From an uncultured Bacillales bacterium (GTDB lineage Bacteria > Bacillota_I > Bacilli_A > RF39 > UBA660), in contig CAMNHK010000001.1 in the NCBI GenBank assembly GCA_946539445.1, positions 9,845-73,844 on the forward strand: a stretch of 64,000 nucleotides of DNA, given 5' to 3'. Numbering within the stretch: position 1 is the first letter of the stretch; each line of letters opens with the position of its first letter. This document shows, piece by piece, positions 1-48,471 of the stretch. Under the pieces are notes generated by a model. The model was not told where the DNA came from. It ran no database searches and saw only the letters and a list, made by a program, of their open reading frames with translations. The translations under genes and the position numbers were made by a program.

Positions 1-16
1 TAGAGAAGGTGATTAT

Positions 17-589
17 ATGGATTTATCTTTATTTGAAAAGTTTGGAATTTTATTTCGTTATATCTTTTCTTCTTTTCTTTCTATAGAGATGTTCCTTTTA
101 AGCCTTCTTTTATTTATGATTTTGGTAGTTAATTTAAGAAGAAATAATCATTTGGTTCAAATGATTGCGATTGGTATTTATATCGGATTTGTTATTGGAA
201 TTCTAATTAGTTACAGTACTTATGTAAAGTCTTGTATGGATTCTTTTGTAAAAGCTATTATGAATTATATTTATTTTCCATCTACTATTGTTTATTTTTT
301 CATTATATTGTTTGTTACTGTGATGATTTTATGGACTTTGTTTAGTAAGAAGATGTCGCAATTTAAAAAAATTGTTAATTATTTATTTTTTAGCATTTTA
401 TATTTCTTTTTTATGTCCTTTGTAGCGTTGGCTGCTTATGATATGGTTGATTTATTAGATATTGCTAAACTATATCAAAATGAGACTATTTTATGTTTGG
501 TTCAGATTAGTAATTTTATTTTATTAATATGGTTATTATTTACTGGCTTTTACTATTTATTTTTCTATTTCAAAAAGAAATTTGATTAA
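17..589 (+). CDS. hypothetical polytopic membrane protein (about 6 hydrophobic segments)
   Basis: Complete ORF with a GAAGGTGAT RBS 6 nt upstream of the ATG. Translation is dominated by hydrophobic helices. No recognisable catalytic motif. Confidence 0.45.
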   Translation: MDLSLFEKFGILFRYIFSSFLSIEMFLLSLLLFMILVVNLRRNNHLVQMIAIGIYIGFVIGILISYSTYVKSCMDSFVKAIMNYIYFPSTIVYFFIILFVTVMILWTLFSKKMSQFKKIVNYLFFSILYFFFMSFVALAAYDMVDLLDIAKLYQNETILCLVQISNFILLIWLLFTGFYYLFFYFKKKFD

Positions 590-612
590 AGGATTTTAAA
601 ATCCTTTTTTTG
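588..612. terminator. bidirectional rho-independent terminator between convergent genes
   Basis: Palindrome AAAGGATTTTAAAATCCTTT followed by a T-run. It sits between the stop of the + ORF and the stop of the - VanY-like gene. Confidence 0.5.
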
Positions 613-1384
613 TGGCGTAGTACTCTTCTAAAGTAATTTTTTGATGATAAAGATGATAAGCTAGTTTTAATCCTACGTACCGATAATGCCATGGTTCATA
701 TTGATATCCTGTAATATCTTCTTTTCCTTTTGGATATCGTTCGATAAAACCATATTCATAGGCATGTTCTTTGATCCACTCATATTCATTTGTTTTATGA
801 AAATTTTCATAAGATTCTATTCCATTCGAGATATCCAAGGCTAGCCCTGTTTGATGTTCAGAATAACCTGGCCTTGCGGAATAGGTATCGGCTTTTTCTA
901 TTCCTTCTAATTTTACATATTTTTTGTATAAATTATCTTGATATTCATAACTGCGATATGCGGATATAGCATATACTGATAATCCTTTCTTTTTCATTTC
1001 TTGTGCTAACTTTTCCCAGGCATTCTTAGCTTCTTTTGAGAGATATAATTCTCTTGTTGAATAGTTCTCATTTATCTTTTCTAGTGTGGGTGGAATATAG
1101 TCTTGTCCTAAATAAAAGTGTTTATTTACTAATACGCTTTTTTTTCCAATATTAGGGGATTTTTCTGTTCCTTCATAAGGTTTTTTATCTTGCTGTAAAT
1201 TTACGGCTTGGACTACTTGTTTTTTTGTTAATAATGGTTTCTTTTTTTTATATTGTTTGTATCTTTCTTTGTAAGAATCTTTATAGTATTTTGTTTTTAT
1301 AAAGGATTCTTTCGATAGTTCTTTATTACCTAAGACTAAAGCTATTAATATTACTTCCCATAGGAGTAGTTTTTGTATTTTCAT
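596..1384 (-). CDS. secreted D-alanyl-D-alanine carboxypeptidase, VanY / peptidase M15B family
   Basis: N-terminal signal peptide. Motifs SEHQTGLALD and EPWHYRYVG match the Zn-binding signatures of VanY-type DD-carboxypeptidases. Confidence 0.75.
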   Translation of the reverse strand: MKIQKLLLWEVILIALVLGNKELSKESFIKTKYYKDSYKERYKQYKKKKPLLTKKQVVQAVNLQQDKKPYEGTEKSPNIGKKSVLVNKHFYLGQDYIPPTLEKINENYSTRELYLSKEAKNAWEKLAQEMKKKGLSVYAISAYRSYEYQDNLYKKYVKLEGIEKADTYSARPGYSEHQTGLALDISNGIESYENFHKTNEYEWIKEHAYEYGFIERYPKGKEDITGYQYEPWHYRYVGLKLAYHLYHQKITLEEYYATKKGF

Positions 1385-1442
1385 GATATCTCCTTTTATG
1401 CATAGTTTCTTTTTTATAACATATGGTTTACTAGGAGGATTT

Positions 1443-2591
1443 ATGAAAAAAATAGTATGGTTTTTAATTGGAATTTTTTTCTTCTTTCCCTTTCATACTT
1501 GGGCAGAAGAACTAATTCCTAATGCTGATAGTGGAATTTTGATGGAAGTGAGTAGTGGTAAAATTCTTTATGAGAAAGATATTCATAAAAGAGTTTCGGT
1601 TGCTTCTATGACGAAAATGGTTGCTCAAATTCTTATTTTAGAGGAAATAGAAAAAGGAACGATTCATTGGAATGATATTGTAACGGTTAGTAGTAATGCC
1701 AGTGAAATGGGAGGTAGTCAAATTTACTTAGAAGCAGGCGAGAAAATGTCTGTAGAAGATTTGATGAAGGGAATTAGTGTTGCGAGTGGAAATGATGCTA
1801 CGGTTGCAATGGCAGAATATATTAGTGGTACGGAAGAAAAATTTGTAAAACGAATGAATCAAAAAGTGTTGGGTTTAGGATTAGCCGATACTCATTTTGA
1901 AAATTGTACGGGATTGGATCAAGAAAATCATTATTCTAGTAGTTATGATATGGCAATGATTGCCAGAGAACTAATGATCCATCATCCGGATATTTTAAAG
2001 TATTCTTCTATTTATGAAGATTATTTAAGACAAAATACCGATCATAAGTTTTGGCTCGTTAATACCAATAAATTGATTGCTCAATATGAGGGGTGTGATG
2101 GATTAAAAACGGGTCATACGGATGCTGCTGGGTATTGTTTAGCAGCTACTGCTAAAAGGGGTGATCTACGTTTTATTGCTATTGTGTTAGGAGAAAAAGA
2201 TAGCAAAGTAAGAAATCGAGAGACCGTTGGACTTTTGGATTATGGATTTACGAATACAAAGGTTCATGTTTTAAAGAAAAAGGGGGAAATTGTAGATACT
2301 ATTTCATTTTCTAAAGCTACTCCTAGTCAAGCCTCTTTTCTATTACAAGATAATCTTATTGCCGTAGAAGAAGTGGGAGAATCCTCTTCTTATCACTATA
2401 AACCAATCATTCGTTCTCTTTCCTTACCTATTCAAAAAGGATCGATTGTTGGAGAGATGATTGCTTATCGTGATCAAGAGGAAATTAGTAGAGTTCCAAT
2501 TGTTGTGGACCGGGATGTACAAAAGATGAGTTTTCTTTCTCTTTTTTGGCAAGAAATTAAAAATATTTTCCTAGGAATTTTTGCATTTTAG
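1443..2591 (+). CDS. serine-type D-Ala-D-Ala carboxypeptidase (PBP5/DacA-like, peptidase S11)
   Basis: GGAGGA RBS before ATG 1443 and a signal peptide. SxxK (SMTK), SxN (SGND) and KTG (KTGHT) motifs are in the correct order and spacing. Confidence 0.85.
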   Translation: MKKIVWFLIGIFFFFPFHTWAEELIPNADSGILMEVSSGKILYEKDIHKRVSVASMTKMVAQILILEEIEKGTIHWNDIVTVSSNASEMGGSQIYLEAGEKMSVEDLMKGISVASGNDATVAMAEYISGTEEKFVKRMNQKVLGLGLADTHFENCTGLDQENHYSSSYDMAMIARELMIHHPDILKYSSIYEDYLRQNTDHKFWLVNTNKLIAQYEGCDGLKTGHTDAAGYCLAATAKRGDLRFIAIVLGEKDSKVRNRETVGLLDYGFTNTKVHVLKKKGEIVDTISFSKATPSQASFLLQDNLIAVEEVGESSSYHYKPIIRSLSLPIQKGSIVGEMIAYRDQEEISRVPIVVDRDVQKMSFLSLFWQEIKNIFLGIFAF

Positions 2592-2648
2592 ACTTTTTTC
2601 TCTCTTGGTTCTTTGATATAATATTTTTGTATAATCGGAGGTTGTAGT

Positions 2649-3596
2649 ATGGCAAAGAATAATAGTAAACCTTACAATGATAAAAAAAATACCAAAAATA
2701 GCAAAAATTCTTCTAAGAAGAAGAATATTGAAAATACTACGAAAATTCGAATTGACCGTGAACGATTAAATGATTCAGAATCTTTGGACACTAGTTTCTT
2801 AGAGGGACGTTTTTCTAAGAAAGTTCCATCTAGTAAAGAAAAAAGAGATTTGCTGATAAGCGAAAAAAGTAAAAAAATTCAAAGAGTAGAACTTTTAAAA
2901 AAATTATTTTATTCTTTATCCATTTTTTGCATATTAGTTCTTGGAATTATGGCTTTTTTTGCAAACAATCCTATTACTCTTTTTCATAAGAAAGAACGGT
3001 TAGAGGAACCTATTGCGATTCAAAAAGCAGATGATACTCTTGATCGTAATTATTTATTTGTTGGTGATTATCATACGGATGAATTTGATTTTTCTCTTTA
3101 TCATTATGACTATCATTATGTAAAAGTGAGTAGTGATGATATGACGGCTTCTGTGGTATCAAATCAATTAAGAGATTTTATTTATCAATATAATCCATCC
3201 ATTGTTTTCTTGCAGTTAGGAATGAACGATTTACAAAAAGGAGAGTCTTTTGAAACAATTCTTAAATCTTTCCATAAAATTGTTGATGGGATTCAAGCAA
3301 ATCGTCCTTATGCCACGATTTATGTAGAATCTTTATATCCAATTAATCCTTCTAATCCATATTATAATGATGGTGTTTTTGGAGATTTGGATAATTCTGA
3401 TATTCAACAATTTAATGAGGAATTAAAGGAATTGTGTGAAGAACAAAAAATTGAATATTTGGATATCTTCCAAGAGTTAGTCGAAAATGGAGCATTGAAG
3501 GACTCTTATACGGATGATGGTATTTTATTAAATGATAATGGCTATCGTCGACTTGTGAAAGTTATTAATCGAGTGATTGAGGCTGTTGAGCAATAA
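2649..3596 (+). CDS. membrane-anchored SGNH/GDSL-like hydrolase with a Lys-rich N-terminal tail
   Basis: GGAGGT RBS. Lys/Ser-rich N-terminus, one TM helix, then an FVGDY....GMNDL....DDG(I)H-like SGNH arrangement. Confidence 0.55.
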   Translation: MAKNNSKPYNDKKNTKNSKNSSKKKNIENTTKIRIDRERLNDSESLDTSFLEGRFSKKVPSSKEKRDLLISEKSKKIQRVELLKKLFYSLSIFCILVLGIMAFFANNPITLFHKKERLEEPIAIQKADDTLDRNYLFVGDYHTDEFDFSLYHYDYHYVKVSSDDMTASVVSNQLRDFIYQYNPSIVFLQLGMNDLQKGESFETILKSFHKIVDGIQANRPYATIYVESLYPINPSNPYYNDGVFGDLDNSDIQQFNEELKELCEEQKIEYLDIFQELVENGALKDSYTDDGILLNDNGYRRLVKVINRVIEAVEQ

Positions 3597-3660
3597 AAAA
3601 GTATGTTTTAAACATATTTTTTTTATTGTTTCATACAATTATTATGAAAGTGAGGAAAAA

Positions 3661-3921
3661 ATGGAAACATTAAAAGTTAGTAGTAAATCAAATCCTAATA
3701 GTGTAGCAGGGGCGTTGGCAAATGTCTTTCGTGAAAAAGGTGTTGTGGAAATTCAAGCAGTTGGGGCTGGGGCTTTGAATCAAGCGATTAAAGCTGTTGC
3801 GATTGCGCGCGGTTTTGTTGCACCTAGTGGTAAAAACCTTGTTTGTATTCCAGCCTTTCAAGATATTTCCATTGATGGTGAGGAAAGAACTGCGATTAAA
3901 TTGTTGATAGAAGCAAAATAG
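3661..3921 (+). CDS. spoVS: stage V sporulation protein S
   Basis: The 86-aa product METLKVSSKSNPNSVAGALANV...AIARGFVAPSG...CIPAF.DI.IDGEERTAIKL is near-colinear with Bacillus SpoVS. GAGGAAAAA RBS. The start is internal to the longer listed ORF. Confidence 0.85.
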   Translation: METLKVSSKSNPNSVAGALANVFREKGVVEIQAVGAGALNQAIKAVAIARGFVAPSGKNLVCIPAFQDISIDGEERTAIKLLIEAK

Positions 3922-3988
3922 CTTCTTTTTTTATACTAAAAAAAGAATTGTATGGTACAATACTTATAGAAGGTAGGGAAGATGGATT

Positions 3989-5170
3989 ATGAATGAGAAT
4001 GGTGGATATACGATATACTGTGCTCGTTGTGGTGAGGAAATGAACAGTAATTCACGGTATTGTATGAAATGTGGATATTTAAATCCAGAACATGAAGCAA
4101 ATCAATCCATGCAGCAATATATTAAAAATCAAACGAATACTTATTCCGTTGGAGGAGGATCTACTATTCCTCAAAATGAGATTACTCAACAATCTGCTAT
4201 CGGACTTGCTTATAATGCTGGAAATCGTGTTATTTGTTTTGTTACCAATTTACTCGTTTTTTTGGGTCTGAATTTTATTTTAGGTTTTTTAGCGTTTCAA
4301 ATGAACCCAACGGAGTTGAATACGATTGTTTATTCTTTTTATCCGATTACCTGTATGATTCTTTCTGTGGGTTTCCTATGGCATTATTCTTTACAATTAC
4401 TTTTTATGAAATGTAATCAAAGATGGTGGAAAGCTTGGATTCCTTTTTATAATTTTGTCGTTTTGGGAAATCTTGCTTTTCGTTCTAAGAGTATTGGATG
4501 GATTGCTTTGATTCCAGGTGTTGGTATTATTTTCTTATTAATTGTGTTTTATCGATTAGGAAAAGAATTTCAATATAATGGAATATTATGTTTATTATTA
4601 CCAATTGTTTTTATTCCACTGATTGGATATGGAACGCATTTTTATGGTAACAATCAATATGTTAGTTCTACTGATTCTAAAGTTGTGGAAAGAAACTATC
4701 GATTGCAAAAGATTTTATATCGTTTGTTCGTTGTATTTTTCTTAATAGGACTTGTATTATTTATTATCGCGAATATGACAAGTGTTAAGACTACTAGTCG
4801 TTATGTTCAAAATTATTATTATGTTTATGCTAGTAAAAAACTTGTAAAAGAAGTAGATAGTATGGTTTCGAATAATCAAGTTGTATGTAATAATCGAGAA
4901 TTTTCTCTAACTACTGGTATGTATTACTTTTATTTTGCAGATATCCGTGATGAAATATATTTGCCTCTTTATTATTTGAGAGAGCCTATATCTGCTTTTG
5001 TTATTGCGGATAGAAATGGAGAAGTTCCAAGATATTATGTCAGTATGACGGATGGCACTTATGGATTTGCTTCTACTCTTGTGGAAGAAATTACTTATAC
5101 AACACCAATAGAATATCCAAGTATTGGTATTGACCTTAATGCTCCTAATGTTTGTTATCTAAACAAATAA
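3989..5170 (+). CDS. membrane protein with N-terminal zinc-ribbon (CxxC...CxxC) and extracytoplasmic C-terminal domain
   Basis: CARCG...CMKCG zinc ribbon at the N-terminus, followed by about 5 TM helices and a 150-aa C-terminal domain. No family assignment possible. Confidence 0.45.
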   Translation: MNENGGYTIYCARCGEEMNSNSRYCMKCGYLNPEHEANQSMQQYIKNQTNTYSVGGGSTIPQNEITQQSAIGLAYNAGNRVICFVTNLLVFLGLNFILGFLAFQMNPTELNTIVYSFYPITCMILSVGFLWHYSLQLLFMKCNQRWWKAWIPFYNFVVLGNLAFRSKSIGWIALIPGVGIIFLLIVFYRLGKEFQYNGILCLLLPIVFIPLIGYGTHFYGNNQYVSSTDSKVVERNYRLQKILYRLFVVFFLIGLVLFIIANMTSVKTTSRYVQNYYYVYASKKLVKEVDSMVSNNQVVCNNREFSLTTGMYYFYFADIRDEIYLPLYYLREPISAFVIADRNGEVPRYYVSMTDGTYGFASTLVEEITYTTPIEYPSIGIDLNAPNVCYLNK

Positions 5171-5234
5171 TTCTTGCAAAACGTTTCATTTTTTACTATA
5201 ATAAATTCAAGTCGATTATTAGAACTAATAATAA

Positions 5235-5400
5235 GATGATTTAGCTTAGAGAAGTCGTGGCTGGTGAAAACGATGTAATAGTCTTATTTATCTACTCTAT
5301 AGACGAAGAAATTCCGGGGAGTCCCGTTATCAAAAAAGTGAAAGTAAGGATGGTACCGTGCAATTGCACTCCTTTGGTATCATCCTTTTTTTATTGGAAA
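5235..5400 (+). promoter_or_regulatory. T-box leader (tRNA-sensing riboswitch) upstream of the NUDIX-serS operon
   Basis: AGAGA and GGTGA stem-I-like motifs near 5246-5265. T-box core AAGGATGGTACCGTG (5346-5360) is close to the consensus AGGGTGGTACCGCG. A terminator helix AAGGATGGTACC/GGTATCATCCTT plus a T7 run follows, ending just before the RBS of the downstream gene. Confidence 0.5.
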
Positions 5401-5408
5401 GGAGAACT

Positions 5409-5843
5409 ATGGATTCGATTATTAAAACTGGTGTTGGTGTTATGATCTTGAATCAAGGAAAGATTCTTTTAGGACATCGATCCTCGAAGAGAAAAGATAC
5501 TGGTGGTATATTTGAACCGGATACTTGGACTTTGCCAGGAGGAAAGCAAGAATACTCGGAAACAGTATTTGATACGGCTATTCGGGAAATAAAAGAAGAG
5601 ACTAATTTGGATATTTCACAGTTAGAAGTATTCTCAGTCTCGGATGACTTTCAAGCGGATCGCCATTTTGTGACGATTGAAGTGATTGCTAATCATTATT
5701 CGGGAGAACTTCGAGTAATGGAACCTATTAAAGAAGATGAATGGAAATGGTTTTCTTTTGATGAATTACCAGAAAACCTATATTCTCCATCTAAAAAATT
5801 TATAGAAAAATATTTAAATAAAAGAAAAGAGGAAAAAATATGA
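5409..5843 (+). CDS. NUDIX hydrolase
   Basis: Nudix box GGKQEYSETVFDTAIREIKEETNL (Gx5Ex7REUxEExGU). GGAGAAC RBS. The stop overlaps the serS start. Confidence 0.75.
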   Translation: MDSIIKTGVGVMILNQGKILLGHRSSKRKDTGGIFEPDTWTLPGGKQEYSETVFDTAIREIKEETNLDISQLEVFSVSDDFQADRHFVTIEVIANHYSGELRVMEPIKEDEWKWFSFDELPENLYSPSKKFIEKYLNKRKEEKI

Positions 5844-7126
5844 TCGATATAAAATACATTCGAGAAAACAAAGATTTAGTGAAAGAAAATATTAAGAAAA
5901 AATTTCAAGATGAAAAACTTCCATTAGTAGATGAAGTATATGAACTTGATAAAAAAGTACGTGAAGTACAAGTAAAAGCTGATACTTTAAAAGCTGATAA
6001 GAATAAATTAAGTGGTGAAATTGGAAAATTAATGAAGGATGGTAAGAAGGACGAAGCAGAAGAAATCAAGAAAAAAATTGCTGAAACAGCTGAAGAAATT
6101 ACCAAATTAGAAGGGGAACAAGAAGAATTATCAAAATCTATCCGTGAAAAAATGATGGTTATTCCACAAATTATTGATGAATCTGTACCTATTGGTAAAG
6201 ATGATAGCGAAAATGTGGAAGTTCAAAGATTTGGAGATCCTGTAGTTCCTAGTTATGAAATTCCTTATCATGCAGATATTATTGAGAGATTAAATGGTAT
6301 GGATAAAGATGCTGCTGGTAGAACTTCTGGACAAGGATTTTATTACTTACTTGGAGATATAGCCCGTTTACATGAGGCTATGATTGCTTATGGTAGAGAT
6401 TATATGATTGACCAAGGATTTACTTATGCGATTCCACCATTTATGATTCATAGTGATGTAGTTACGGGAGTTATGTCATTCCCTGAAATGGAAGCTATGA
6501 TGTATAAAATAGAAGGGGAAGATTTATACTTAATCGGAACTTCTGAACATAGTATGATTGGTAAGTTTAAAGATCAAATTATTAAAAAAGAAGAATTGCC
6601 AATTCATATGACAAGTTATTCTCCATGTTTTAGAAAAGAAGGAGGAAGTCATGGCTTGGAAGAAAGAGGACTATATCGTGTTCATCAATTTGAAAAGCAA
6701 GAAATGATTGTTGTATGTGAACCAGAAGAATCTATGGATTGGTATAATAAGATGTGGCAATTTACGGTTAATATTTTCCGTAATATGGATATTCCTGTTC
6801 GTCAATTAGAGTGTTGTAGTGGAGATTTAGCAGATTTGAAAGTTAAATCTTGTGATATTGAAGCGTGGTCTCCTCGTCAACAAAAGTATTTTGAAGTGGC
6901 TTCTTGTAGTAATTTAGGAGATGCTCAAGCTAGACGTTTGGGAATTCGTTGTAAGGGAGAAAAGGGTACATATTATTTACATACTTTAAATAATACAGTT
7001 GTTGCTACTCCTCGTGGATTAATTGCTTTAATTGAAAATAATTATCAAGAAGATGGAAGTATTAAAATACCAAAAGTTTTACAACCATATATGGGTGGTA
7101 AAGAAGTTATTACTCCAAAGAAATAA
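5840..7126 (+). CDS. serS: seryl-tRNA synthetase
   Basis: 428 aa. N-terminal coiled-coil tRNA-binding arm and class II aaRS core motifs. Length and architecture are typical of SerRS. Confidence 0.9.
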   Translation: MIDIKYIRENKDLVKENIKKKFQDEKLPLVDEVYELDKKVREVQVKADTLKADKNKLSGEIGKLMKDGKKDEAEEIKKKIAETAEEITKLEGEQEELSKSIREKMMVIPQIIDESVPIGKDDSENVEVQRFGDPVVPSYEIPYHADIIERLNGMDKDAAGRTSGQGFYYLLGDIARLHEAMIAYGRDYMIDQGFTYAIPPFMIHSDVVTGVMSFPEMEAMMYKIEGEDLYLIGTSEHSMIGKFKDQIIKKEELPIHMTSYSPCFRKEGGSHGLEERGLYRVHQFEKQEMIVVCEPEESMDWYNKMWQFTVNIFRNMDIPVRQLECCSGDLADLKVKSCDIEAWSPRQQKYFEVASCSNLGDAQARRLGIRCKGEKGTYYLHTLNNTVVATPRGLIALIENNYQEDGSIKIPKVLQPYMGGKEVITPKK

Positions 7127-7130
7127 AAGA

Positions 7131-7160
7131 AAAAGAATATCGTTTGATATTCTTTTTTTA
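7131..7160. terminator. bidirectional terminator between serS and the convergent pilin-like gene
   Basis: AAGAATATC-GTTTG-ATATTCTT hairpin flanked by an A-run and a T-run. Confidence 0.6.
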
Positions 7161-9596
7161 TTAGAAGTAACGTAATTTGGAATTGCATTGACGATAGGTT
7201 CCGCCATTACAAGAGGTGTAGTCATAACCTGTCCAATTGCTCCAATCTGAGTACGTTTCGCATCCACAATCACTAGAACGATTATAGTAACTACAGGATC
7301 TAGTTCGACAGTTGTAAGCATAGAATCCACTTTCTGCTCCGGCACAATCCGCTAATCCGTCATAGCATTCTCCATATGGAGCGGAAGTATAAGTATTGGT
7401 ACAATTCCATCCAGACCATCCAGAGTAACTTGCACATCCAGCTGATGCACATCTTGCCCAAGTATTACAAGATCTGGTTCTTGTTCGATAGTAGGTTACA
7501 GGAGAAACGGTTAGAGAACAACTTCCTGGATTTCCTAGAATGTCATATACTGTGAAAGAAGTACTACTTTTTTGATTCGTGAAGGAAGATACATTATTGT
7601 TTCTGCAACCACTGTAAGTATCGGAACAAGAAATGGTTCCACTGACTCCATCAAAGCCTCCTGTATTAGTTTTTGTTGGGGTGCAAGAAGGCCCTGTTCG
7701 GTCTAACATAATCGTTATATTATCGTTGTAGGTTCCACAGTTTCCAGCAGCATCACAAGCACGATATTGGATGTAAGAGTATCCTTCGGCTTCTATATTA
7801 CGATAATTTCCTTGAACATCACTTTCATTGGTGGTTCTTCCAGTAGTGGTATATCGATAATAAATTCCTTTGGAAATATCATCGGTTGAATCGCTAGCTG
7901 TTGTAAATACTTTTCCAGATAACCAAGTGCCTGGCGTATAAGCGGTAAGTCCGGCATACGATGTTGGCCTTGTGTTATTGTTGTGCCATCTATAGGAATA
8001 TGTATTTGGTGTTGTTGGAGCAGTTCTATCGATGTCTGCTTGAATGAAGAAAATCGTCTCATTTCCAGCCTTATCTTTTACGGTTAGTTTTCCAGCTCTC
8101 ATTCCTTCTCCTACTAGCGAGATGTATACCGTTTCTTTTCTTTTTCCACAGTTTGTGGTGGATAAATCGGGAGCCGTAAAGAATGTTTCGGCAATTCCAT
8201 CGGGATTGGTAGCTTTATAAGTAGAATAACTTCCAGAACCTCGATTATTAATACCGGCTTTGTTTGTTTCCCACTTCCAACTATATAAGTGAAGGTCGTC
8301 GGTGAAGGTAATTTTATAGATTACTCCATACGGATAATTATCTTTATTCATCCAATTGTTAATTAAATTTTTATATTTTGTATACTGAAGTGTAGACGTT
8401 TCTGTTGATTGAGTGGTAGCTCCATTTAAGATCGAGTTACCATCTATTTCTCCAGAAGAATTTCTCTTATATCCAACTAATTCTATTTTTGGTCTTTCTA
8501 AATCGACATTGATTCGTACTCGGCAAGTATCATTTGTAAATACTAATTCACATGGATCGGTTGTTACATAGGAATTTGCAACATTTGTATTTCCTGCATT
8601 ATCTTTTACTTGAATATAAGCATATTCGGCTGATTTCTGATCATTATTTGGCCATGTTCTAGTAAACTTATCACGAATACATCCACTTCCATCTCCATCG
8701 GAACAAGTAGCTGTTAACTTACGATATTTGGTATTACTATAGACATTGACCCAATCATTTTCATTTTTTGCTTGATTGGAAATATCTACACAGTATGGTG
8801 GAGTCGTATCTTGATATTTGGCACTTCCAGATGAGTCTATGCTCGATATTTTTTCATCTAATACTCCGCCTTTAACGTTTCTTACGGTTGCTTTTACAGT
8901 GATGTAGGAAGCTTGTGTGACATCTATATAATCTTTTAGGGCTTTTTCTATTTTTATTTCTGTTTTGCCATTTCCACTTAATGTTCCCGAATTAAAAACT
9001 TCTTTTACTTCGTTGGAATTTTCATTACTAGTGGAGATTGAATAGTGATATCCATCAATTGCGATAGGAGTATCATCCCTATCTTTTCCACCTGTAAAGT
9101 TTATAATAATTTTAGCTTCTGATACGTTTTCAAAGACATGTTCGTTTTCTTCTCCAGAAGCATCTGTAAATAAGATTTGAATGGTTGGAATAGGAGCTTC
9201 TTCTTCAGTCGGAACTTCCTCATCTCCACAATATATGTGTGCTGTATAAATGTATTGATCCTTTGACTGTTTATAAACCGTGGTGTAGGATTTTTCCATG
9301 CAAGATTTACCATCTGCTTTTATATCTTCTTTTAAATAATTATTGTTTCTTAATACTGTAATTGGAATGGTGGTTGTTTCTCCAATTGCTTTTGGCATTT
9401 CACTTTTATGAGATTGCATATAACTTTCCGTAGCCATTTCTACTGTCTTTTCTTGTTCTGCCTTTTGAGTGTCTTTGCCTTTTTGAATGATTCTTGAAAT
9501 GGACATAATCGTTACAACTGATAAGATTCCTAGAATTGTTATTGCGGCTAATAATTCAATTAATGTGAATCCTTTTTTGTTATATAATTGTTTCAT
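7161..9596 (-). CDS. giant type IV prepilin-like protein (class III signal peptide) with Cys-rich C-terminal region
   Basis: N-terminus MKQLYNKKG/FTLIELLAAITILGILSVV is a canonical prepilin cleavage/methylation motif. 811 aa. The last 200 or so residues are extremely rich in Cys, Tyr, Ser, Gly, Asn and Thr. Confidence 0.7.
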   Translation of the reverse strand: MKQLYNKKGFTLIELLAAITILGILSVVTIMSISRIIQKGKDTQKAEQEKTVEMATESYMQSHKSEMPKAIGETTTIPITVLRNNNYLKEDIKADGKSCMEKSYTTVYKQSKDQYIYTAHIYCGDEEVPTEEEAPIPTIQILFTDASGEENEHVFENVSEAKIIINFTGGKDRDDTPIAIDGYHYSISTSNENSNEVKEVFNSGTLSGNGKTEIKIEKALKDYIDVTQASYITVKATVRNVKGGVLDEKISSIDSSGSAKYQDTTPPYCVDISNQAKNENDWVNVYSNTKYRKLTATCSDGDGSGCIRDKFTRTWPNNDQKSAEYAYIQVKDNAGNTNVANSYVTTDPCELVFTNDTCRVRINVDLERPKIELVGYKRNSSGEIDGNSILNGATTQSTETSTLQYTKYKNLINNWMNKDNYPYGVIYKITFTDDLHLYSWKWETNKAGINNRGSGSYSTYKATNPDGIAETFFTAPDLSTTNCGKRKETVYISLVGEGMRAGKLTVKDKAGNETIFFIQADIDRTAPTTPNTYSYRWHNNNTRPTSYAGLTAYTPGTWLSGKVFTTASDSTDDISKGIYYRYTTTGRTTNESDVQGNYRNIEAEGYSYIQYRACDAAGNCGTYNDNITIMLDRTGPSCTPTKTNTGGFDGVSGTISCSDTYSGCRNNNVSSFTNQKSSTSFTVYDILGNPGSCSLTVSPVTYYRTRTRSCNTWARCASAGCASYSGWSGWNCTNTYTSAPYGECYDGLADCAGAESGFYAYNCRTRSCSYYNRSSDCGCETYSDWSNWTGYDYTSCNGGTYRQCNSKLRYF

Positions 9597-9731
9597 CCTA
9601 TCACCTTATCTTAATTTTATATGAAATTCTAGTTTTTCTCAATAGAAAGTAGTGTCTAATGGGTGCTTTTTGATGGAAAAAATGAAACTATTTTTTGGTT
9701 GTATGATAAAATAAAATTAGGATGTGATTCT

Positions 9732-10430
9732 ATGCCTTTTTTAATAGGAGTTATTCTTTTAATCCTATTTGTTCTAATTCTATATTTTTATTTTAGAGTT
9801 CGAATTCAGAAGTTTTTAAGACAATTTGGTTTGTCTGCTCAAAATATCGGAGATATTATTGAAGAGGCAAGATTGGAAGATCAAGAACTTCCTAAGTCTC
9901 TTTCTAGTATGGATCGCATTTTTGAAAAACAAGTTCTTACGGATTTCCCAGATATGAATATTCAGGAATTAAAGAAAAAGTCCGAAAAAGAAATCCTTGA
10001 TTTTTTTCAAGCTATTGAAAGAGGAGACAGTTCTTCTTTATCTGGAAAAATTAAAAGTGCTGCTGAGAGTATGATAATGGATTTTCAAGGTAAGAATATT
10101 TCTTTTCAACAATTTCGATTCCATAATACGGTTTTATCGAATTATCATAAGAATAAGAATATTGCGACTCTTTCGTTTTCTTCCGCTTTTGAATACTATC
10201 AAAATGAGAATGGTCATTCTGTGAAATGTCAAGATCGAGCTAGAGTAGAGTATATTTATGTAATTGATGAGACGGCTATTGCTGATTCAGTTAAGGCTAT
10301 TGGAATTCATTGCCCTAATTGTGGTAGTCCTATAAAAACATTAGGAGAAAAGCATTGTAGTTATTGTGGAAGTGCAATTTTAGAAGTTGTTGGTAGAGTT
10401 TTTGTTTGTAATGATATTGTGAGATATTAA
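9732..10430 (+). CDS. membrane protein with C-terminal zinc ribbon (YdjG-like)
   Basis: Start at MPFLIGVILLILF with an upstream TAGGATGTGAT motif. N-terminal TM helix and C-terminal CPNCGS...CSYCGS ribbon. Confidence 0.5.
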   Translation: MPFLIGVILLILFVLILYFYFRVRIQKFLRQFGLSAQNIGDIIEEARLEDQELPKSLSSMDRIFEKQVLTDFPDMNIQELKKKSEKEILDFFQAIERGDSSSLSGKIKSAAESMIMDFQGKNISFQQFRFHNTVLSNYHKNKNIATLSFSSAFEYYQNENGHSVKCQDRARVEYIYVIDETAIADSVKAIGIHCPNCGSPIKTLGEKHCSYCGSAILEVVGRVFVCNDIVRY

Positions 10431-10465
10431 GGGATTTGTTATAATAAATGATAGGATGTGATAAT

Positions 10466-11368
10466 ATGTATCAAGATTCAGAAGATAATGGAATGAATTA
10501 TGGAATTGCTGCGCGAAGATTTCATTGCCGAGATTGTAATGCTAGTTTTATTTCATTAGGGTCTAAGACTATTGAGTATTGCTGTGTATGCCATAGTAAT
10601 AATATAGAGACTAAGAATGATGTATATGAAAAGAAACCTTATATTGTTCCTTTTCGTAAAACATTAGAAGATGCTAAAAATGATTATCAAAAGAAAGTTT
10701 TATTTCATCCATTAGTTCCATTTGTATTTAAATCAAAAGCAACAATTGAGGCAATCCAAAAGGTGTATTTACCGGTTATTGTTGTGGATGCTAATTTGCA
10801 AGGAACGGTTGATTTTTTAGCAGGAGATAAGACCAAAATTATGAAAGAAAAGGTTGCCTTTATTGAAACAAAAAAATATAGTGTTTTGGCCGATGTTAAT
10901 CTTAATTATCATCATATTATTTTGAATATGACTTCTAAATTACAAGATCGATTATTTCATACTATTTGTGATTATCAATTTGATCAACTATTAGAATATA
11001 ATCCAAATGCCTTAGGAGATAGTGCTATTTTGGTAGATGATAAAGATTTGAATGCAGTTGCTGATCTTGGAAGACAAAGGATTATGAAACATGCTATGGC
11101 GGTTATCAAATCTAATATTAATCATGAATTAAAGAAAGTGAATAACAATGGTGCTTTGTTAAATTTTGTCAATTCAAAAGAAGTATTAGTTCCTGTTTAT
11201 TTATTAACGGTTCATTATAAAGATAAAGATTATATTTATTTGATGAATGGAGAAAATGGGGCTGTTTCTTTAGAATTAGTATTTGGTAAAATTGAAATTA
11301 TTTTATTTAGTTTATTAATGTTTGGTCTTATCTTTTTAATCGCATTTTTAATTGCATATTTCTTATAG
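10466..11368 (+). CDS. zinc-ribbon protein with C-terminal TM anchor
   Basis: CRDCNAS...CCVCHS ribbon near the N-terminus. C-terminal hydrophobic helix ILFSLLMFGLIFLIAFLIAYFL. The same TAGGATGTGAT motif precedes the ATG. Confidence 0.5.
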   Translation: MYQDSEDNGMNYGIAARRFHCRDCNASFISLGSKTIEYCCVCHSNNIETKNDVYEKKPYIVPFRKTLEDAKNDYQKKVLFHPLVPFVFKSKATIEAIQKVYLPVIVVDANLQGTVDFLAGDKTKIMKEKVAFIETKKYSVLADVNLNYHHIILNMTSKLQDRLFHTICDYQFDQLLEYNPNALGDSAILVDDKDLNAVADLGRQRIMKHAMAVIKSNINHELKKVNNNGALLNFVNSKEVLVPVYLLTVHYKDKDYIYLMNGENGAVSLELVFGKIEIILFSLLMFGLIFLIAFLIAYFL

Positions 11369-11377
11369 GAGGTTATT

Positions 11378-12196
11378 GTGAAAAAAGGTTTATTCTATTT
11401 ATTGATTTTTACTAGTTTTTTCTTATTTTATCCTACTACTTATGCTAGTACCGTTACTTATCCAAGAACAGAGGAGGACTTTTTAGTTCCAGCAGATGTT
11501 CAAGTTACAGAAAGTAATAAGATGGATATTTTAAATACTCCTGCTGTTAATGCTAGTGAGAAATTATATGATTTTGCGGAATTGTTTTCTGATTCTGAAG
11601 AGGGAGATTTAATTCGTAAGATTCAGGAGTATAGTGTATTATCTAGATATGATTTAGCAATTGTTACTACCAATAATTTAAATGGTTTTGTAATAGGGGA
11701 TTATACGAATAATTTTTATGACTATAATGATTTTCAAAATGAAGGTATTATTTTAGTTATTTATATTGGTGGATTGGATCCTCAAATATATATGGGAACT
11801 AGTGCTTTACCTACAAGTGAGTTACAAAAGATTTATTCTGATGCTAGAATTCATCAAACTTTGGCTTATATTTATAAAGATATAAAAGATGCAAAGTATT
11901 ATAATGCGGTTGATAATTATATAAAAATTGTAAAAGGCTTCTTTGAATTGGATAATGATAAACAGTATGTTGTAGATGGAAATGGAAATTTGGTAAAACA
12001 AATTCCATGGATTGAAATTGTTATTTTAGCATCTACTTTATCTTTTATCATTGTTATTTTGTTAATCAATCGTTTGAAAAAGTATAATGTTGTTCAATAC
12101 TCTGATAATATTGAAACGAAATTAGATCCTACTTCTATTCGTGTTTCTATTACGAAAGATGAACAAGTGGATCGAGTTTTGTCAAAAGCAAAATAG
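11378..12196 (+). CDS. TPM-domain (DUF477-like) membrane protein
   Basis: Signal peptide. LYDFAELFSD.E...L...I.....Y.L.IVTTNNLNG resembles the TPM phosphatase-like fold signature. C-terminal TM helix. Confidence 0.55.
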   Translation: MKKGLFYLLIFTSFFLFYPTTYASTVTYPRTEEDFLVPADVQVTESNKMDILNTPAVNASEKLYDFAELFSDSEEGDLIRKIQEYSVLSRYDLAIVTTNNLNGFVIGDYTNNFYDYNDFQNEGIILVIYIGGLDPQIYMGTSALPTSELQKIYSDARIHQTLAYIYKDIKDAKYYNAVDNYIKIVKGFFELDNDKQYVVDGNGNLVKQIPWIEIVILASTLSFIIVILLINRLKKYNVVQYSDNIETKLDPTSIRVSITKDEQVDRVLSKAK

Positions 12197-12261
12197 TACT
12201 TTTCAAAAAAGTTATATTATTGTATAATAAAATTAATTAAATATTAGATAGGAGAGTTTTT

Positions 12262-13401
12262 ATGGGTTTAATTAAAGCTGCTGTAGGTGCTGTTAGTAGT
12301 ACACTACACGATCAATGGAAAGAGTATATTCGTTGCGAAGACCTTGGAAATGATATATTAATGAAAAGAGTTTCTACTCCAAATGGTATTATTTCTAAGG
12401 ATAGTGCTATTCAAGTTGCCCCAGGACAAATTGCTATTATTTTTGAAAATGGTAAAATCCTAGATGCTACTGCTGAAGAAGGAATCTATACTTTTGATCA
12501 ATCATCTTCACCATCATTCTTTGCTGGACAATTTGGAGATGTATTTAAAGAAATGTGGACTCGTTTCACATATAACGGTGGTGTTAATAAGGAACAAGCT
12601 GTATTCTATATTAACGCTAAAGAGATTATGGATAATAAATTTGGAACACCTGCTCCAATTCCATTCCAAGATTGGTCTCATCCAATTCCAAATCAAATGA
12701 CTGGATCTATGAGTCCATTAAGAGTAGAAGTAAAATGTTTTGGTAAATATACATTTATGATTAGCGATCCTGCATTATTTATGAGTAGAATTGCTGGAAC
12801 TGCTACTGAATATAGAAAAGAAGATATTACAGAACAAATGAGATCTGAAGTTATTGGTGCTTTCCAAAATGTGTTAAATGAATTAGGCAATAGTGCTCAT
12901 AAAGTTCCAGTATTGGAATTACCAAGTGCTACGGATGAAATTAAGAAAACAATGGATGAAAAAGTATTCGATCAACCAATTCGTGATCGTGGAATTAGCT
13001 TAGTAGGTTTCGTTGTTGAATCTGTAACATTAGATGATGAATCTAATAAGAAAATTGATAATTATGAACTTTCTTCTAACAGTTTCATGCAACAAGGAAC
13101 TCTTGTTGGTTCTTATGGAAAAGCTATCCAAGATGCTGCAAACAATCCTAATGGAGCTGCTGCTGGCATGATTGGAGTAGGAATGATGAATATGGCAAGC
13201 GGAGGAATGATTGGAGGAGCTGCTCAAGGAGCCTTCCAAAATCAAGGTACAACGGCTGCTGTTGATCCATTTAATAATGGAGTTGCTGCTGCACCTGCTC
13301 AAGGAGCTGCACAACCAGCTGAAGGAGGATTCTGCCCTAACTGTGGAACTCCTGCAAATGGAGCAAATTTCTGTTCTAAATGTGGAACTAAATTAAAATA
13401 A
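12262..13401 (+). CDS. SPFH/band-7 domain protein, YdjI-like, with Gly/Ala-rich linker and C-terminal zinc ribbon
   Basis: N-terminus MGLIKAAVGAVSSTLHDQWKEYIRC matches the conserved start of the Bacillus YdjI family. C-terminal CPNCGT...CSKCGT. Confidence 0.65.
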   Translation: MGLIKAAVGAVSSTLHDQWKEYIRCEDLGNDILMKRVSTPNGIISKDSAIQVAPGQIAIIFENGKILDATAEEGIYTFDQSSSPSFFAGQFGDVFKEMWTRFTYNGGVNKEQAVFYINAKEIMDNKFGTPAPIPFQDWSHPIPNQMTGSMSPLRVEVKCFGKYTFMISDPALFMSRIAGTATEYRKEDITEQMRSEVIGAFQNVLNELGNSAHKVPVLELPSATDEIKKTMDEKVFDQPIRDRGISLVGFVVESVTLDDESNKKIDNYELSSNSFMQQGTLVGSYGKAIQDAANNPNGAAAGMIGVGMMNMASGGMIGGAAQGAFQNQGTTAAVDPFNNGVAAAPAQGAAQPAEGGFCPNCGTPANGANFCSKCGTKLK

Positions 13402-13407
13402 GAATAA

Positions 13408-13439
13408 AAAGCTATCAACGAAAGTTGATAGTTTTTTTG
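13408..13439 (+). terminator. rho-independent terminator
   Basis: GCTATCAAC-GAAA-GTTGATAGT hairpin plus T7. Confidence 0.7.
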
Positions 13440-13610
13440 TATAATTATATTCTTTTTTTCCATACTATTATTAGTGTAAAGGTCCATATATAAGTTCTTT
13501 ATTTCTTCTTTTTATTTTTTTTAAAAAAAGTATTGATTATCTTTTTATTTCTTTGTTTTTCAACAAAATATGAAGGATAAGAATTTTTTATAACTCCTTT
13601 TTTTAGCAGT

Positions 13611-13639
13611 TTGACACTAATTTTATCTTTTGTTAGAAT
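13611..13639 (+). promoter_or_regulatory. sigma-A-type promoter (TTGACA-17-TAGAAT)
   Basis: Consensus -35 and near-consensus -10 with 17-nt spacing, about 35 nt upstream of the ankyrin gene. Confidence 0.5.
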
Positions 13640-13671
13640 AGAAAACTGTCATGGACAAAGAGGTGTTTGAT

Positions 13672-14358
13672 ATGACAAATCAAGAATTACAAGTATATCA
13701 ATCTTGTAAGGAAGAACCATCGTTGATTTTTAGTATTATTAAGCAAGGGGCTTATGATGTTGCTTTTGACTTGATTAATAATAATATTGTTAATGTTAAT
13801 ACAGTAGATGGTGTTGGTAATGATGTCGTTATGCGTTTTTTGAAAGCTAGACAATATGATTATGTAATTGATTTGATGAAAAAAAGAAATTGGAATGTAA
13901 ACCATATGAATCAAGAGGGAAATACCTTTGGACATATTCTAGCTCAAGATAACTCTGTAATGGCTGTTAAAGTTGTTGAACAATTAACTAAAAAGAAAAA
14001 TTATATTCCCAATTTAAAAAACCATAAAGGTGAGACTGCAATGGATATTGCTCTTTCAAATCATTATTTATGTACTGCTTTTAAATTGTTGGAAGATGAG
14101 CGTTTTAATAATATTGATGTATTTTCTTTTAAAAACTTGTTTGATGTTAGTATTAAAAATAAAGTATATGGAAAATATTCTAAGATTACGAATTTGGAAA
14201 TTATTGTAGAGAATTTGGAAAAGAAAGAATTGAATTCTGGAATGAAAGATTTAGTGGATCATATTTCCGATAATATGGATGCCATTAAAAAAGATATTAT
14301 GAATAATCGTTCTACTGTTTTGGAATCTATTATTCATTATTATATGGTTACGGAATAG
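13672..14358 (+). CDS. ankyrin-repeat protein
   Basis: GAGGTG RBS. At least four 33-residue units with the ankyrin G-TPLH-like pattern (GNDVVMRFL, GNTFGHILA, GETAMDIAL). Confidence 0.55.
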   Translation: MTNQELQVYQSCKEEPSLIFSIIKQGAYDVAFDLINNNIVNVNTVDGVGNDVVMRFLKARQYDYVIDLMKKRNWNVNHMNQEGNTFGHILAQDNSVMAVKVVEQLTKKKNYIPNLKNHKGETAMDIALSNHYLCTAFKLLEDERFNNIDVFSFKNLFDVSIKNKVYGKYSKITNLEIIVENLEKKELNSGMKDLVDHISDNMDAIKKDIMNNRSTVLESIIHYYMVTE

Positions 14359-16897: not shown

Positions 16898-17521
16898 CTA
16901 GTATTTTTTTATTAATTCTATTATTTCGTTGGCTGTTTTGTTGATGAAGTCTTCTACGGCTGTTATATCAAGAGTATATGTTTTTTCTGATTTGGAATTT
17001 TCAATTAATATTCCCATTTTGTTTAAAAGAATATCTAGACTTTCAACGGGAACTTCTTTTATATTTGTTTTTGGAATTACAAATTCTTCATAAAATAGTG
17101 ATAATTCCAAATCATATTTTTCAATAATACGGATATTTAAATTTGTGTAATCCGAATAAAGCATATTACGCATTTCTTCTGGAGTTGTTTGAATAATTGT
17201 TCCATCTAGTAGTTTTATAGAATTGTTTGCGGTTATATTTGGCATAAATTCTTCGAACCACTTTTTATCGGCATATAGATGAGTAAAGTAACCTAAATCA
17301 AAAGAATTATATTTGAAAAAAGGATATCTTTTTATAAACAAGTTAATATTTGGAACATCCTCTAAGGTATTGATTAAGAAATGAGATTCTTCTTTACTTC
17401 TACCAATTTGTTTGGATATATCTGGCGCAATAGCTCCTAAATAATAGTCTTTTATGTTGTCGACTGCCATTCTTTCTTTTACTTTTTTTGCTATTGCTAA
17501 ATGAATGATTGTTGAAGCCAT
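16898..17521 (-). CDS. hypothetical protein (possible Zn-dependent phospholipase-C-like fold)
   Basis: Starts with an H....A.....LG.IAPD pattern. The assignment is weak. Confidence 0.3.
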   Translation of the reverse strand: MASTIIHLAIAKKVKERMAVDNIKDYYLGAIAPDISKQIGRSKEESHFLINTLEDVPNINLFIKRYPFFKYNSFDLGYFTHLYADKKWFEEFMPNITANNSIKLLDGTIIQTTPEEMRNMLYSDYTNLNIRIIEKYDLELSLFYEEFVIPKTNIKEVPVESLDILLNKMGILIENSKSEKTYTLDITAVEDFINKTANEIIELIKKY

Positions 17522-17625
17522 ATATGATTCCTCCTATTATTTTTATTATATCATTAAATTTTAATATTTGTTTTTTTTTAGTACTTTTTTTCTTCCTTTT
17601 ACATATATTACAATGGGAGGCAGTT

Positions 17626-18141
17626 ATGGCTAATTATCGTGAAATTGTTACAAAAGCTATTGTATCGAAAGGAAAGAAACTTTTTACTTCGGAAAATAGT
17701 GTTGTAGTAGAGAATCCATCTACTATATTAGGATGTTGGATTATTAATCATAATTTCCATGGAGTTAAAAAAGGGAATGATATTCAAATAGAAGGAAATT
17801 ACGATGTTAATATTTGGTATTCTTATGATAATGATTCTAAGACCAATGTCGTGAAGGAAGTAGATCATTACCAAGAGATTGTTCACATGCGTGATGTAGA
17901 AGGAGTTAGTGGAGAAGAAATTATGGTTCGTAGTTTGAAACAGCCAAATTGTGTAAAGGCGGAAATTCAAGGAAATACGATTCATTACGTAGTGGAAAAA
18001 GAATTAGGAATTGAACTATTAGGAGACGTGAAAGTGAAAGTAGAAACGGCAGAAGAAGATCCTTGGGATGATATTGCAGAAGAAAAAAGTCAGGGACCAG
18101 ATGATACGATTCGAGAAAACTTTATTGAAGAAACGATTTAA
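17626..18141 (+). CDS. cotE: spore coat morphogenetic protein CotE
   Basis: MANYREIVTKAIVSKGKK...ILGCWIINH...YDVNIWYSYDNDSKTNVV and an acidic C-terminal tail align closely with Bacillus CotE. GGGAGG RBS before ATG 17626. Confidence 0.8.
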   Translation: MANYREIVTKAIVSKGKKLFTSENSVVVENPSTILGCWIINHNFHGVKKGNDIQIEGNYDVNIWYSYDNDSKTNVVKEVDHYQEIVHMRDVEGVSGEEIMVRSLKQPNCVKAEIQGNTIHYVVEKELGIELLGDVKVKVETAEEDPWDDIAEEKSQGPDDTIRENFIEETI

Positions 18142-36266: not shown

Positions 36267-36328
36267 TTTCCTTTCATTCTCTTCTTTTGTTGATAAAAGA
36301 ACGGTATAATTATAGTAGGGTGTTTCGT

Positions 36329-42985: not shown

Positions 42986-43047
42986 TTTTGGAAATTTACA
43001 AATGAATAATTCTTTGTTAAAATTAAATAATAGAGGTGGTATGTGAA

Positions 43048-48408: not shown

Positions 48409-48471
48409 GTTTTGTCGAATGGGTGGAAAGACTTTTTGGTTTGAGGTATTCTTGTTTTGGAAAGGAGGAAT

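Follow-up and report, generated by a model that had tools for sequence, protein, structure and literature searches.

An orphan 811-residue type IV pilin-like protein with a cysteine-rich C-terminal module belongs to an unannotated family of uncultured gut Bacilli

Modular pilins, in which further modules are grafted onto a pilin module, are known from more than 1,200 examples in 264 architectures, the largest in the survey that described them measuring 860 amino acids (aa) (Raynaud et al., 2021; PMC8179133). PilB and PilC of Streptococcus sanguinis, which join a pilin to a vWA and to a lectin module, respectively, are modular pilins acting as adhesins, and CofB and TcpB of the type IVb pili of enterotoxigenic Escherichia coli and Vibrio cholerae, composed of a pilin domain, a flexible linking segment, a beta-repeat and a beta-sandwich domain, are located at the tip and initiate the pilus (PMC8179133). 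Large tip pilins that can replace one another, with genes at scattered loci and many predicted disulfides, are carried by the Kil pili of Myxococcus (PMC12075869). Here we analyze an 811-aa protein encoded in a 64-kb stretch of DNA from an uncultured Bacillales bacterium (contig CAMNHK010000001.1; the whole stretch is referred to below as the window). In the reading that we favor, with moderate confidence, this gene encodes a modular type IV pilin working as a filament-displayed adhesin.

The open reading frame (ORF) spans window positions 7161-9596 on the minus strand, with an ATG start and a stop codon at 7161-7163. A preliminary description of this DNA had proposed an 811-aa type IV prepilin-like protein at these positions, leaving the strand unstated, and both the ORF and its class III signal were borne out. 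The N-terminus, MKQLYNKKG followed by FTLIELLAAITILGIL, is a canonical class III (prepilin) signal of the FTLIELL type, in which a short basic leader ending in Gly precedes Phe+1, Glu+5 and about 20 hydrophobic residues. The hidden Markov model search for the N-methylation domain that had been proposed as a check places the segment MKQLYNKKG-FTLIELLAAITILGILSVVTIM above the cut-offs of both Pfam N_methyl (PF07963; 30.7 bits, cut-off 21.2) and TIGR02532 (30.2 bits, cut-off 16.3), and the class III motif occurs a single time in the six-frame translation of the window. Matches to the NCBIfam models of ComGE (27.5 bits), ComGC (20.5 bits) and ComGF (18.8 bits) fall below the equivalog cut-offs of 49, 75 and 80 bits, respectively, and are limited to the N-terminal 60 residues. 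The features of a sortase substrate are absent, there being no Sec signal, no LPXTG motif and no transmembrane segment at the C-terminus, which reads ...CNSKLRYF.

A structural model of the full-length protein was computed with AlphaFold2 (AF2) from 59 family sequences, with a mean predicted local distance difference test score (pLDDT) of 82. Its pilin module is predicted to comprise an alpha1 helix (aa 12-62) and a small beta-sheet (aa 74-120; strands 74-78, 104-109 and 115-120; pLDDT of the head 83-90), the long helix being packed on the sheet as in type IV pilins. The module holds Phe+1, Glu+5 and Gly14 (mature numbering) together with a conserved Cys99/Cys123 pair. In the alignment of the 59 sequences E14 and C123 are invariant and F10, G23 and C99 are at least 90 % conserved, which makes C99 and C123 a candidate disulfide pair of the pilin head (D-region). 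When the family profile is compared with the PDB, the only structures matched are type IV pilins (Geobacter PilA-N and S. sanguinis PilE1), each over alpha1 alone. Signal models, predicted alpha1 and head, and the alpha1-only profile matches support the type IV prepilin-like identity first proposed; by sequence and by predicted fold the 811-aa product has the features of a type IV pilin.

Behind the pilin module, the model arranges an acidic, Pro-rich linker (aa 126-137, including PTEEEAPIPT), five beta-sandwich domains (D1 to D5) predicted at pLDDT 80-97, and a Cys-rich tail. D3 and D4 form the most confidently modeled region, with pLDDT mostly 94-97. The domains terminate in D-x-A-G-N motifs; D2 also contains C-x-D-G-x-G-S-G-C and V-K-D-N-A-G-N, D3 carries the family motifs NxWMNxxNYPxGV, HLxxWKWETN and EGxRxGxLTVxDKAGN, and the tail bears two copies of a C..GC..YSxWSxW-like motif. 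For the last strand of D5 (aa 699-710, VTYYRTRTRSCN) the model predicts pairing with the C-terminal strand (aa 800-810), the sole part of the tail placed with any confidence. Foldseek searches of the PDB with the model retrieve generic tandem Ig/FN3-like arrays such as RTX adhesin extender regions, macroglobulins and cytokine receptors. By sequence, aa 130-640, D3 included, have no Pfam match even at E<=10, NCBIfam gives nothing significant beyond the pilin N-terminal region, and the extra modules have no sequence relatives in the PDB; the equivalent repeats of homologues match Big_13, Big_3_2 and DUF7743 weakly, and longer relatives hold additional copies of the Cys-containing repeat. As modeled, the protein has the architecture that defines a modular pilin, a pilin module followed by a short linker and modules that are not pilus-specific, and its extra module is not recognizable in Pfam, NCBIfam or the PDB as a known functional domain.

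The protein is a member of a large family. A search with the whole sequence found 253 relatives, nearly all unannotated metagenome proteins of 750-1360 aa carrying N_methyl, most of which align solely over aa 1-640. With the core (aa 130-640) as query, an exhaustive HMMER search of 1.84 billion representatives returned 413 clusters at 50 % identity, 298 of them at E<=1e-10, and the core match nearly always starts at residue 125-150 of the hit, directly after the pilin module. Family members have a median length of about 1040 aa and reach 1832 aa; 183 of the 212 long members (>=700 aa) exceed 860 aa. A class III motif is recognizable in 197 of these 212, and the remaining 15 are start-codon miscalls (M[IV]ELL...) or fragments, with the exception of P0189. 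Among the 197, the residue at -1 is either Gly (186 members) or Ala (11 members), 192 have Phe+1 and 188 have mature Gly14, and the leader has a median of 9 residues; the motif search itself requires Glu+5, and the invariance of that residue rests on the 59-sequence alignment. P0189 (1832 aa) has an ordinary N-terminal signal peptide and the core after about 1000 residues, which indicates that the core can occur outside a pilin context.

A profile scan of contigs was dominated by the generic KGFTLIELL stretch, with only two loci, L007 (aa 1-641) and L008 (aa 7-639), matching beyond the pilin module. Members stem from metagenome genomes of uncultured low-GC 'Bacilli', and the phage and plasmid collections searched contain no relatives. 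Sequence comparison thus delineates a coherent, unannotated family with a conserved core of about 500 aa and a variable Cys-rich C-terminal module. Beyond the pilin region the family is absent from Pfam, NCBIfam, the PDB and the literature searched, and core and tail are therefore each a candidate new domain family.

Of the 26 cysteines in the whole protein, 18 fall within the last 200 residues and 11 within the tail proper (aa 711-811); the preliminary description, which had counted more than 25 in the last 200 or so residues, overstated the number. The C-terminus is nonetheless Cys-rich: against a background of 1.26 % Cys in the other 56 window ORFs counted (19,225 residues), the tail is enriched at a binomial p of 7e-8 and the last 200 residues at 1e-10, and the three large putative surface proteins of the window contain just 0.4-0.75 % Cys. 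Nor is the tail a low-complexity artefact lacking conservation, a possibility raised at the outset together with a search for homologs sharing its Cys pattern. In the closest homolog, P0002 (62 % identity overall), the tail is 71 % identical and all 11 cysteines are kept; P0008 and P0097 each retain 10 of 11, at 43 % and 36 % identity. Cys-rich C-termini are family-wide, with a median of 14 Cys (range 1-28) in the last 200 residues, and several tail types exist, the type of the 811-aa protein being common to just 6-9 or so of 236 members by composition-corrected BLAST. With only the tail as query, the sole hit was a fragment, P0121, the word index of that search probably having failed on the composition of the tail, and tail relatives were found instead by local BLAST among family members.

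The arrangement of these cysteines bears on what they do. Total Cys number is even in 144 of 197 family members (p 7e-11, a value that is indicative only, as the statistic treats related sequences as independent), and D5 (5 Cys) and the tail (11 Cys) together hold 16. The C..C and CxC contexts previously singled out are not characteristic of the family: across 212 family tails CxxC occurs 135 times versus 214 in shuffles and CxC 112 times versus 219, and CC is depleted too. The tail of the 811-aa protein contains one CxC (CGC), no CxxC and no His, and so does not show the paired ligands of a zinc ribbon or metal cluster. The tail had been suggested to be disulfide- or metal-stabilized. Because of the even-Cys bias and the depletion of CxxC and CxC, we favor disulfides over metal sites on these sequence patterns, neither of which proves that bonds are formed.

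The strings WSGW/WSNW and RTRTR in the tail, along with genuine TSP_1 domains in relatives, raised the idea that the tail is a thrombospondin type 1 repeat (TSR; TSP_1, PF00090), a module marked by a WxxW strand, a CSxTCGxG turn, an RxR strand and six conserved Cys. This likeness is superficial and the assignment was rejected, the tail having no Pfam hit at E<=10 and an hhalign probability of 0.7 % against the family's own TSRs; it also has no sequence match in the PDB. Canonical TSRs (W..W..C..CG.G.QT) do occur at the same C-terminal position in eight family members, in P0045 and P0107 above the Pfam cut-off. TSP_1 is an animal-type adhesion module, here found on bacterial pilins.

Genes of the family are organized either as orphans or as tandem arrays whose members, as judged from their sequences, combine conserved stalks with divergent tips. 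Two genomic sites recur. At one, one to five giant pilin genes lie between rpmF and addB-addA (L004, L007, L088, L089), often each trailed by an unannotated membrane protein of about 240 aa (after each pilin in L007 and L088); at the other, the pilin gene lies between a PPIase gene and those of dCMP deaminase and GlyRS (L005, L006, L087). The locus of P0002, L093, shows the GlyRS side only, its contig starting at the pilin gene. The membrane protein of the rpmF-addB site was considered as a companion of the pilins and dismissed, as it is unrelated to the 255-aa ORF that neighbors the pilin gene in the window. Arrays comprise at least four pilins in L004 (JGI Ga0376451_0000167, 1-13699), on whose contig a fifth family member, P0043, is listed, and two in L088 (10001-17179). 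Within an array of five paralogs borne by a 73-kb JGI contig, core identity is 60-89 %, but that of the C-terminal parts only 26-84 %. The closest core relative of the 811-aa protein, P0005, has a different tail, whereas P0008 and P0097, with more distant cores, share its tail, a pattern that suggests module exchange.

At the locus in the window, the pilin gene is convergent with serS and lies on the strand opposite to almost all of its neighbors, and its GC content is 36-38 % versus 28-31 % in the flanks. In relatives whose SerRS is 94 % and 90 % identical, serS is followed by the TPM/SPFH cluster directly or after one 79-aa ORF, and no pilin gene is present. As these close relatives have serS and TPM/SPFH without it, the pilin gene is, by sequence comparison, an accessory single-gene insertion. 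The insertion site shows no tRNA gene and no convincing flanking repeats, the neighboring ORFs scanned include no mobile-element gene, and no riboswitch or other RNA element lies upstream of the pilin gene. An identical or near-identical protein is encoded on at least six contigs of several assemblies.

Giant pilin-like proteins had at first been taken to be no described class. This does not hold, given the modular pilins already cataloged (PMC8179133); what is apparently undescribed is this family and its tail, distinguished by the core of about 500 aa, a size above 860 aa, Cys-rich tips, and orphan or tandem organization in uncultured gut Bacilli. The 811-aa protein shares with S. sanguinis PilB and PilC the class III signal, the small pilin module, the short linker, modules that are not pilus-specific, a monoderm Firmicute host and adhesion from the filament tip as the expected role. 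PilB and PilC, in contrast, have one recognizable functional domain, a length of about 450-490 aa and genes within the pil locus, whereas the 811-aa protein has five Ig-like domains and an unrecognized 11-Cys module, is encoded away from machinery, and has relatives of up to 1832 aa. Like KilN of the M. xanthus Kil Tad pilus, the family consists of paralogous large pilins encoded at scattered loci, with a conserved base and a variable, putatively disulfide-rich distal domain, and KilN proteins have been proposed to be interchangeable tips on one machine (PMC12075869), as the giant pilins would be in the reading favored here. The Kil pilins differ in being Tad/Flp-type proteins of another fold from a diderm, forming heterotrimers with two minor pilins encoded adjacently, whereas the giant pilin genes stand singly or in same-family tandem arrays and have no partner minor pilins. 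CofB and TcpB likewise place a beta-sandwich extension behind a pilin domain, but they are type IVb, trimeric, about 520 aa long, not Cys-rich and encoded within the pilus operon, and the family-profile search of the PDB detected no sequence similarity to them. Sortase-anchored Ig-repeat adhesins of the MSCRAMM type also present a distal binding region on a tandem Ig-like stalk at a monoderm surface; they differ in that the family has an N-terminal pilin-helix anchor and a C-terminal tip, the opposite polarity, and is Cys-rich where those adhesins are Cys-free.

In the mechanism that we infer for the 811-aa protein, the class III signal would direct the precursor into the membrane, and a prepilin peptidase whose gene lies elsewhere would cut after Gly9 and methylate Phe+1. 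The 802-aa mature protein would then be extracted by a type IV filament machine (a type IV pilus or a Com-type pilus, its genes also elsewhere) and incorporated through its hydrophobic alpha1N helix with the conserved Glu5 and Gly14. Since an extension of about 680 aa at the C-terminus has no room in the body of a filament, the protein would be expected to sit at the tip or to decorate the filament as a rare subunit. This extension would form a rod of five beta-sandwich domains, roughly 20 nm in length, ending in a disulfide-knotted, 11-Cys module of about 100 aa as the variable, ligand-binding end. Paralogs and orthologs would retain head and stalk and swap or diverge the tip, creating an adhesin repertoire on a single machine in anaerobic gut Bacilli; the family as a whole probably serves as a set of pilus-displayed adhesins.

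Several observations weigh against this reading. Every window ORF of at least 165 aa was scanned against Pfam or NCBIfam, and none encodes a T2SSE ATPase, T2SSF platform protein, Peptidase_A24 or PilM/N/O; a regular-expression scan of the window also found no T2SSE Walker A motif and no A24 motif, so that the absence of nearby pilus assembly genes noted previously extends to the whole 64 kb. Eight other family loci, examined with 10-kb flanks, encode no prepilin peptidase, assembly ATPase or platform protein, and neither pilD/comC nor a pil or com operon is present on the alternative contigs of the window. No ligand-binding fold was recognized in the tail, the fold of which is not predictable: aa 711-788 have a pLDDT of about 30 in two AlphaFold runs, that of the full-length protein with 59 sequences and one of D5 and tail with 9 tail-sharing sequences, which brought no improvement. 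Systematic formation of disulfides in exported proteins is generally considered to be lacking in Firmicutes (PMC2823432), and this leaves the route of oxidative folding unexplained; the non-independence of the sequences behind the even-Cys bias counts on the same side.

It is conceivable, though on balance we consider it unlikely, that the protein is pilin-anchored at the cell surface and does not become part of any filament. The class III signal would then serve only for membrane insertion, peptidase processing and anchoring by alpha1N, and the Ig-like rod would span the thick wall and expose the Cys-rich module. Such a protein would be an analog of the substrates of the archaeal bindosome (Sulfolobus sugar-binding proteins, PMC3047682), large non-pilin functional proteins that are displayed by way of a class III signal and provide the precedent. 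The very large size of the protein would suit this arrangement, as would the orphan gene and the placement of all family genes examined away from pilus machinery, often beside housekeeping genes. Unrelated orphan large pilin-like ORFs in similar genomes, such as five of about 685 aa in L067, would likewise suggest a general strategy of surface display. Against it stands the conservation of assembly features. In pilins, Glu5 is required for filament assembly and not for cleavage. Mere anchoring would not need an invariant Glu+5, a near-invariant Gly14 or a complete pilin head that includes a conserved Cys pair, and the conservation of these features is the strongest argument for entry into a filament. 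The bindosome itself, moreover, requires a dedicated type IV-like assembly system (Bas), and its substrates are archaeal and lack the bacterial Glu5 and pilin-head features, whereas the giant pilin family keeps the full bacterial signature.

Two further explanations concern the tail and the gene as a whole. That the tail binds metal (Zn or Fe) or is redox-active, its cysteines staying reduced in the anaerobic gut lumen to coordinate metals or to bond intermolecularly to host mucins, seems to us improbable. The organism is anaerobic, with NrdD and NrdG encoded in the window, Firmicutes are largely without Dsb systems (PMC2823432), and the Cys numbers of the tail (11) and of D5 (5), each taken alone, are odd; a tail of unpredictable fold would also be compatible with such a role. 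The typical metal-site spacings CxxC and CxC are, however, depleted in family tails, no His is available for a His/Cys ligand pattern, and whole proteins show the strong even-Cys bias, to which the joint count for D5 and tail conforms. Least credible of all, and in our judgment very improbable, is that the gene is decaying or non-functional, or a horizontally acquired remnant without its partner machine, for instance the leftover of a lost pilus system. Its insertion as a single gene on the opposite strand, its deviating GC content and the pilin-free locus of close relatives would fit such an origin. A remnant would not be expected to combine an intact 2.4-kb ORF, a promoter-like site and a Shine-Dalgarno sequence with all domain motifs and all conserved cysteines, nor to recur nearly unchanged across several assemblies beside hundreds of intact relatives.

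Table 1. Coordinates of the features of the pilin gene and its product, and of related features in the window, in other loci and in family proteins. Positions are those of the window unless a locus (L) or protein (P) is named.
Feature	Position	Strand	Basis or remark
Sigma-70-like promoter candidate, TTGAGA-17-TAAAAT, 10/12	9614..9642	-	Consensus match only
Shine-Dalgarno sequence AAGGTGA	~9601-9607	-	Sequence reading
Complete ORF of prepilin-type modular protein, 811 aa	7161..9596	-	ORF call; same or near-identical protein on several metagenome contigs
Leader peptide MKQLYNKKG, aa 1-9, predicted prepilin-peptidase cut after Gly9	9570..9596	-	N_methyl and TIGR02532 matches
Pilin module, aa 10-125	9222..9569	-	AF2 model; 59-sequence alignment; PDB profile search
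Predicted beta-sandwich domain D1, aa 138-251, zero cysteines	8844..9185	-	AF2, pLDDT about 80-90; Foldseek
Predicted beta-sandwich domain D2, aa 268-364, 5 conserved Cys	8505..8795	-	Alignment; AF2
Predicted domain D3, aa 370-522	8031..8489	-	Alignment; AF2
Predicted beta-sandwich domain D4, aa 531-631, C-terminal end ACDAAGNCG	7704..8006	-	Alignment; AF2
Predicted beta-sandwich domain D5, aa 637-710, 5 Cys	7467..7688	-	AF2
Cys-rich tail, aa 711-811, 11 Cys	7164..7466	-	Sequence; AF2; alignments
AT-rich 18-bp inverted repeat, 89 % complementary, 4-nt loop, candidate bidirectional terminator	7124..7163	.	Between convergent serS and pilin stops; weak sub-threshold Rfam hairpin match
Sporulation genes SpoVS, CotE, SpoVAD and SpoVAC/AEB, and small sigma factor	3577-3921, 17509-18141, 48457-50911		Pfam (SpoVS, CotE, SpoVAD); by eye (SpoVAC/AEB)
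TSP_1-bearing family members	P0045 aa 1106-1153; P0107 aa 631-676; also P0098, P0122, P0141, P0144, P0194, P0215
Large pilin-like ORFs of other families	L067 4012-14773; L023 9995-12914; L010 5460-11002; L046 568-2991; L063 9429-11365

The surroundings of the gene are chromosomal housekeeping and sporulation DNA. Window genes include those of VanY, PBP5, SpoVS, SerRS, MiaB, YlbF, CotE, S16, UppS, RseP, PriA, Fmt, RlmN, PknB, Tex, NrdD, SpoVAD and ScpAB; SpoVAC/AEB and NrdG were recognized by eye only, in translated sequence. This gene content points to an anaerobic spore-former of 31 % GC as the host. SerRS is 90-93 % identical to proteins labeled 'MAG: Bacilli bacterium', which places the host in an uncultured Bacilli lineage with many metagenomic relatives. 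The sporulation genes, found in a lineage labeled 'Bacilli bacterium' with relatives sometimes filed under 'Tenericutes', indicate a spore-forming uncultured gut clade.

Other loci of the window deserve mention in their own right. In a divergently transcribed cluster next to the pilin gene (9663-13401), two zinc-ribbon/transmembrane proteins of 255 and 306 aa, neither assigned to a family, are encoded together with a TPM-domain protein and a zinc-ribbon-bearing SPFH/Band-7 protein; the TPM-SPFH part of the cluster is kept beside serS in relatives (L091, L092), and the first ORF of the cluster is variable. At 36287-38473 lies the gene of a 728-aa protein that consists almost wholly of DUF285 'Mycoplasma' repeats (8 stretches, E 5e-106), unusual for a spore-former. 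A 1318-aa MucBP-domain surface protein (43036-46992) ends in ...VNPETSNPF followed by a hydrophobic segment and KK, which could be a sortase sorting signal of non-canonical form, and a sortase gene lies just past the left edge of the window on an alternative contig (L001 19594-20262). The cluster at 54620-60413 holds genes for a signal peptidase of the SipW type (59166-60413; TIGR02228 above cut-off) and for a protein whose signal peptide is of the SipW-dependent type (55339-56343; TIGR04088), with three unannotated ORFs beside them; in L005, L006 and L093, similar clusters of Peptidase_S24, DUF5305 and DUF6273 genes occur downstream of giant pilins, at a distance of a few kb. An ORF of at least 1195 codons (60415-63999), without a Pfam or NCBIfam match, runs off the right end. 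Beyond the window, orphan large pilin-like ORFs of other families (320-1240 aa) are present in metagenome genomes of low-GC 'Bacilli', 'Tenericutes' and Erysipelotrichaceae; at one of these loci, L067, five ORFs of about 685 aa stand in tandem and have few cysteines, and none of the five loci listed in Table 1 adjoins pilus machinery.

Modular pilins explain how simple type IV filaments gain functions, and the characterized examples carry one recognizable extra domain. The family described here pushes this principle further, with five to eight or more predicted Ig-like domains and Cys-rich tips that appear interchangeable. If displayed on filaments, its members would be likely determinants of the clade's attachment to mucus, host cells or other microbes. 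With 26-50 cysteines each, these exported proteins run counter to the 'cysteine exclusion' described for Firmicutes (PMC2823432) and raise the question of oxidative folding in anaerobic monoderms. We also put forward, as a speculation to which we give little credence at present, that one filament machine is a universal display platform for genome-scattered, horizontally shuffled giant pilins (0.8-1.8 thousand aa) in an abundant, uncultured clade of anaerobic, spore-forming gut Bacilli, disulfide-knotted tips, including host-matrix-mimicking TSRs, setting the specificity of attachment. Were this true, anaerobic Firmicutes would possess an unrecognized capacity for extracytoplasmic oxidative folding, and pilin anchoring rather than sortase anchoring would be a major route for the display of large adhesins in this lineage.

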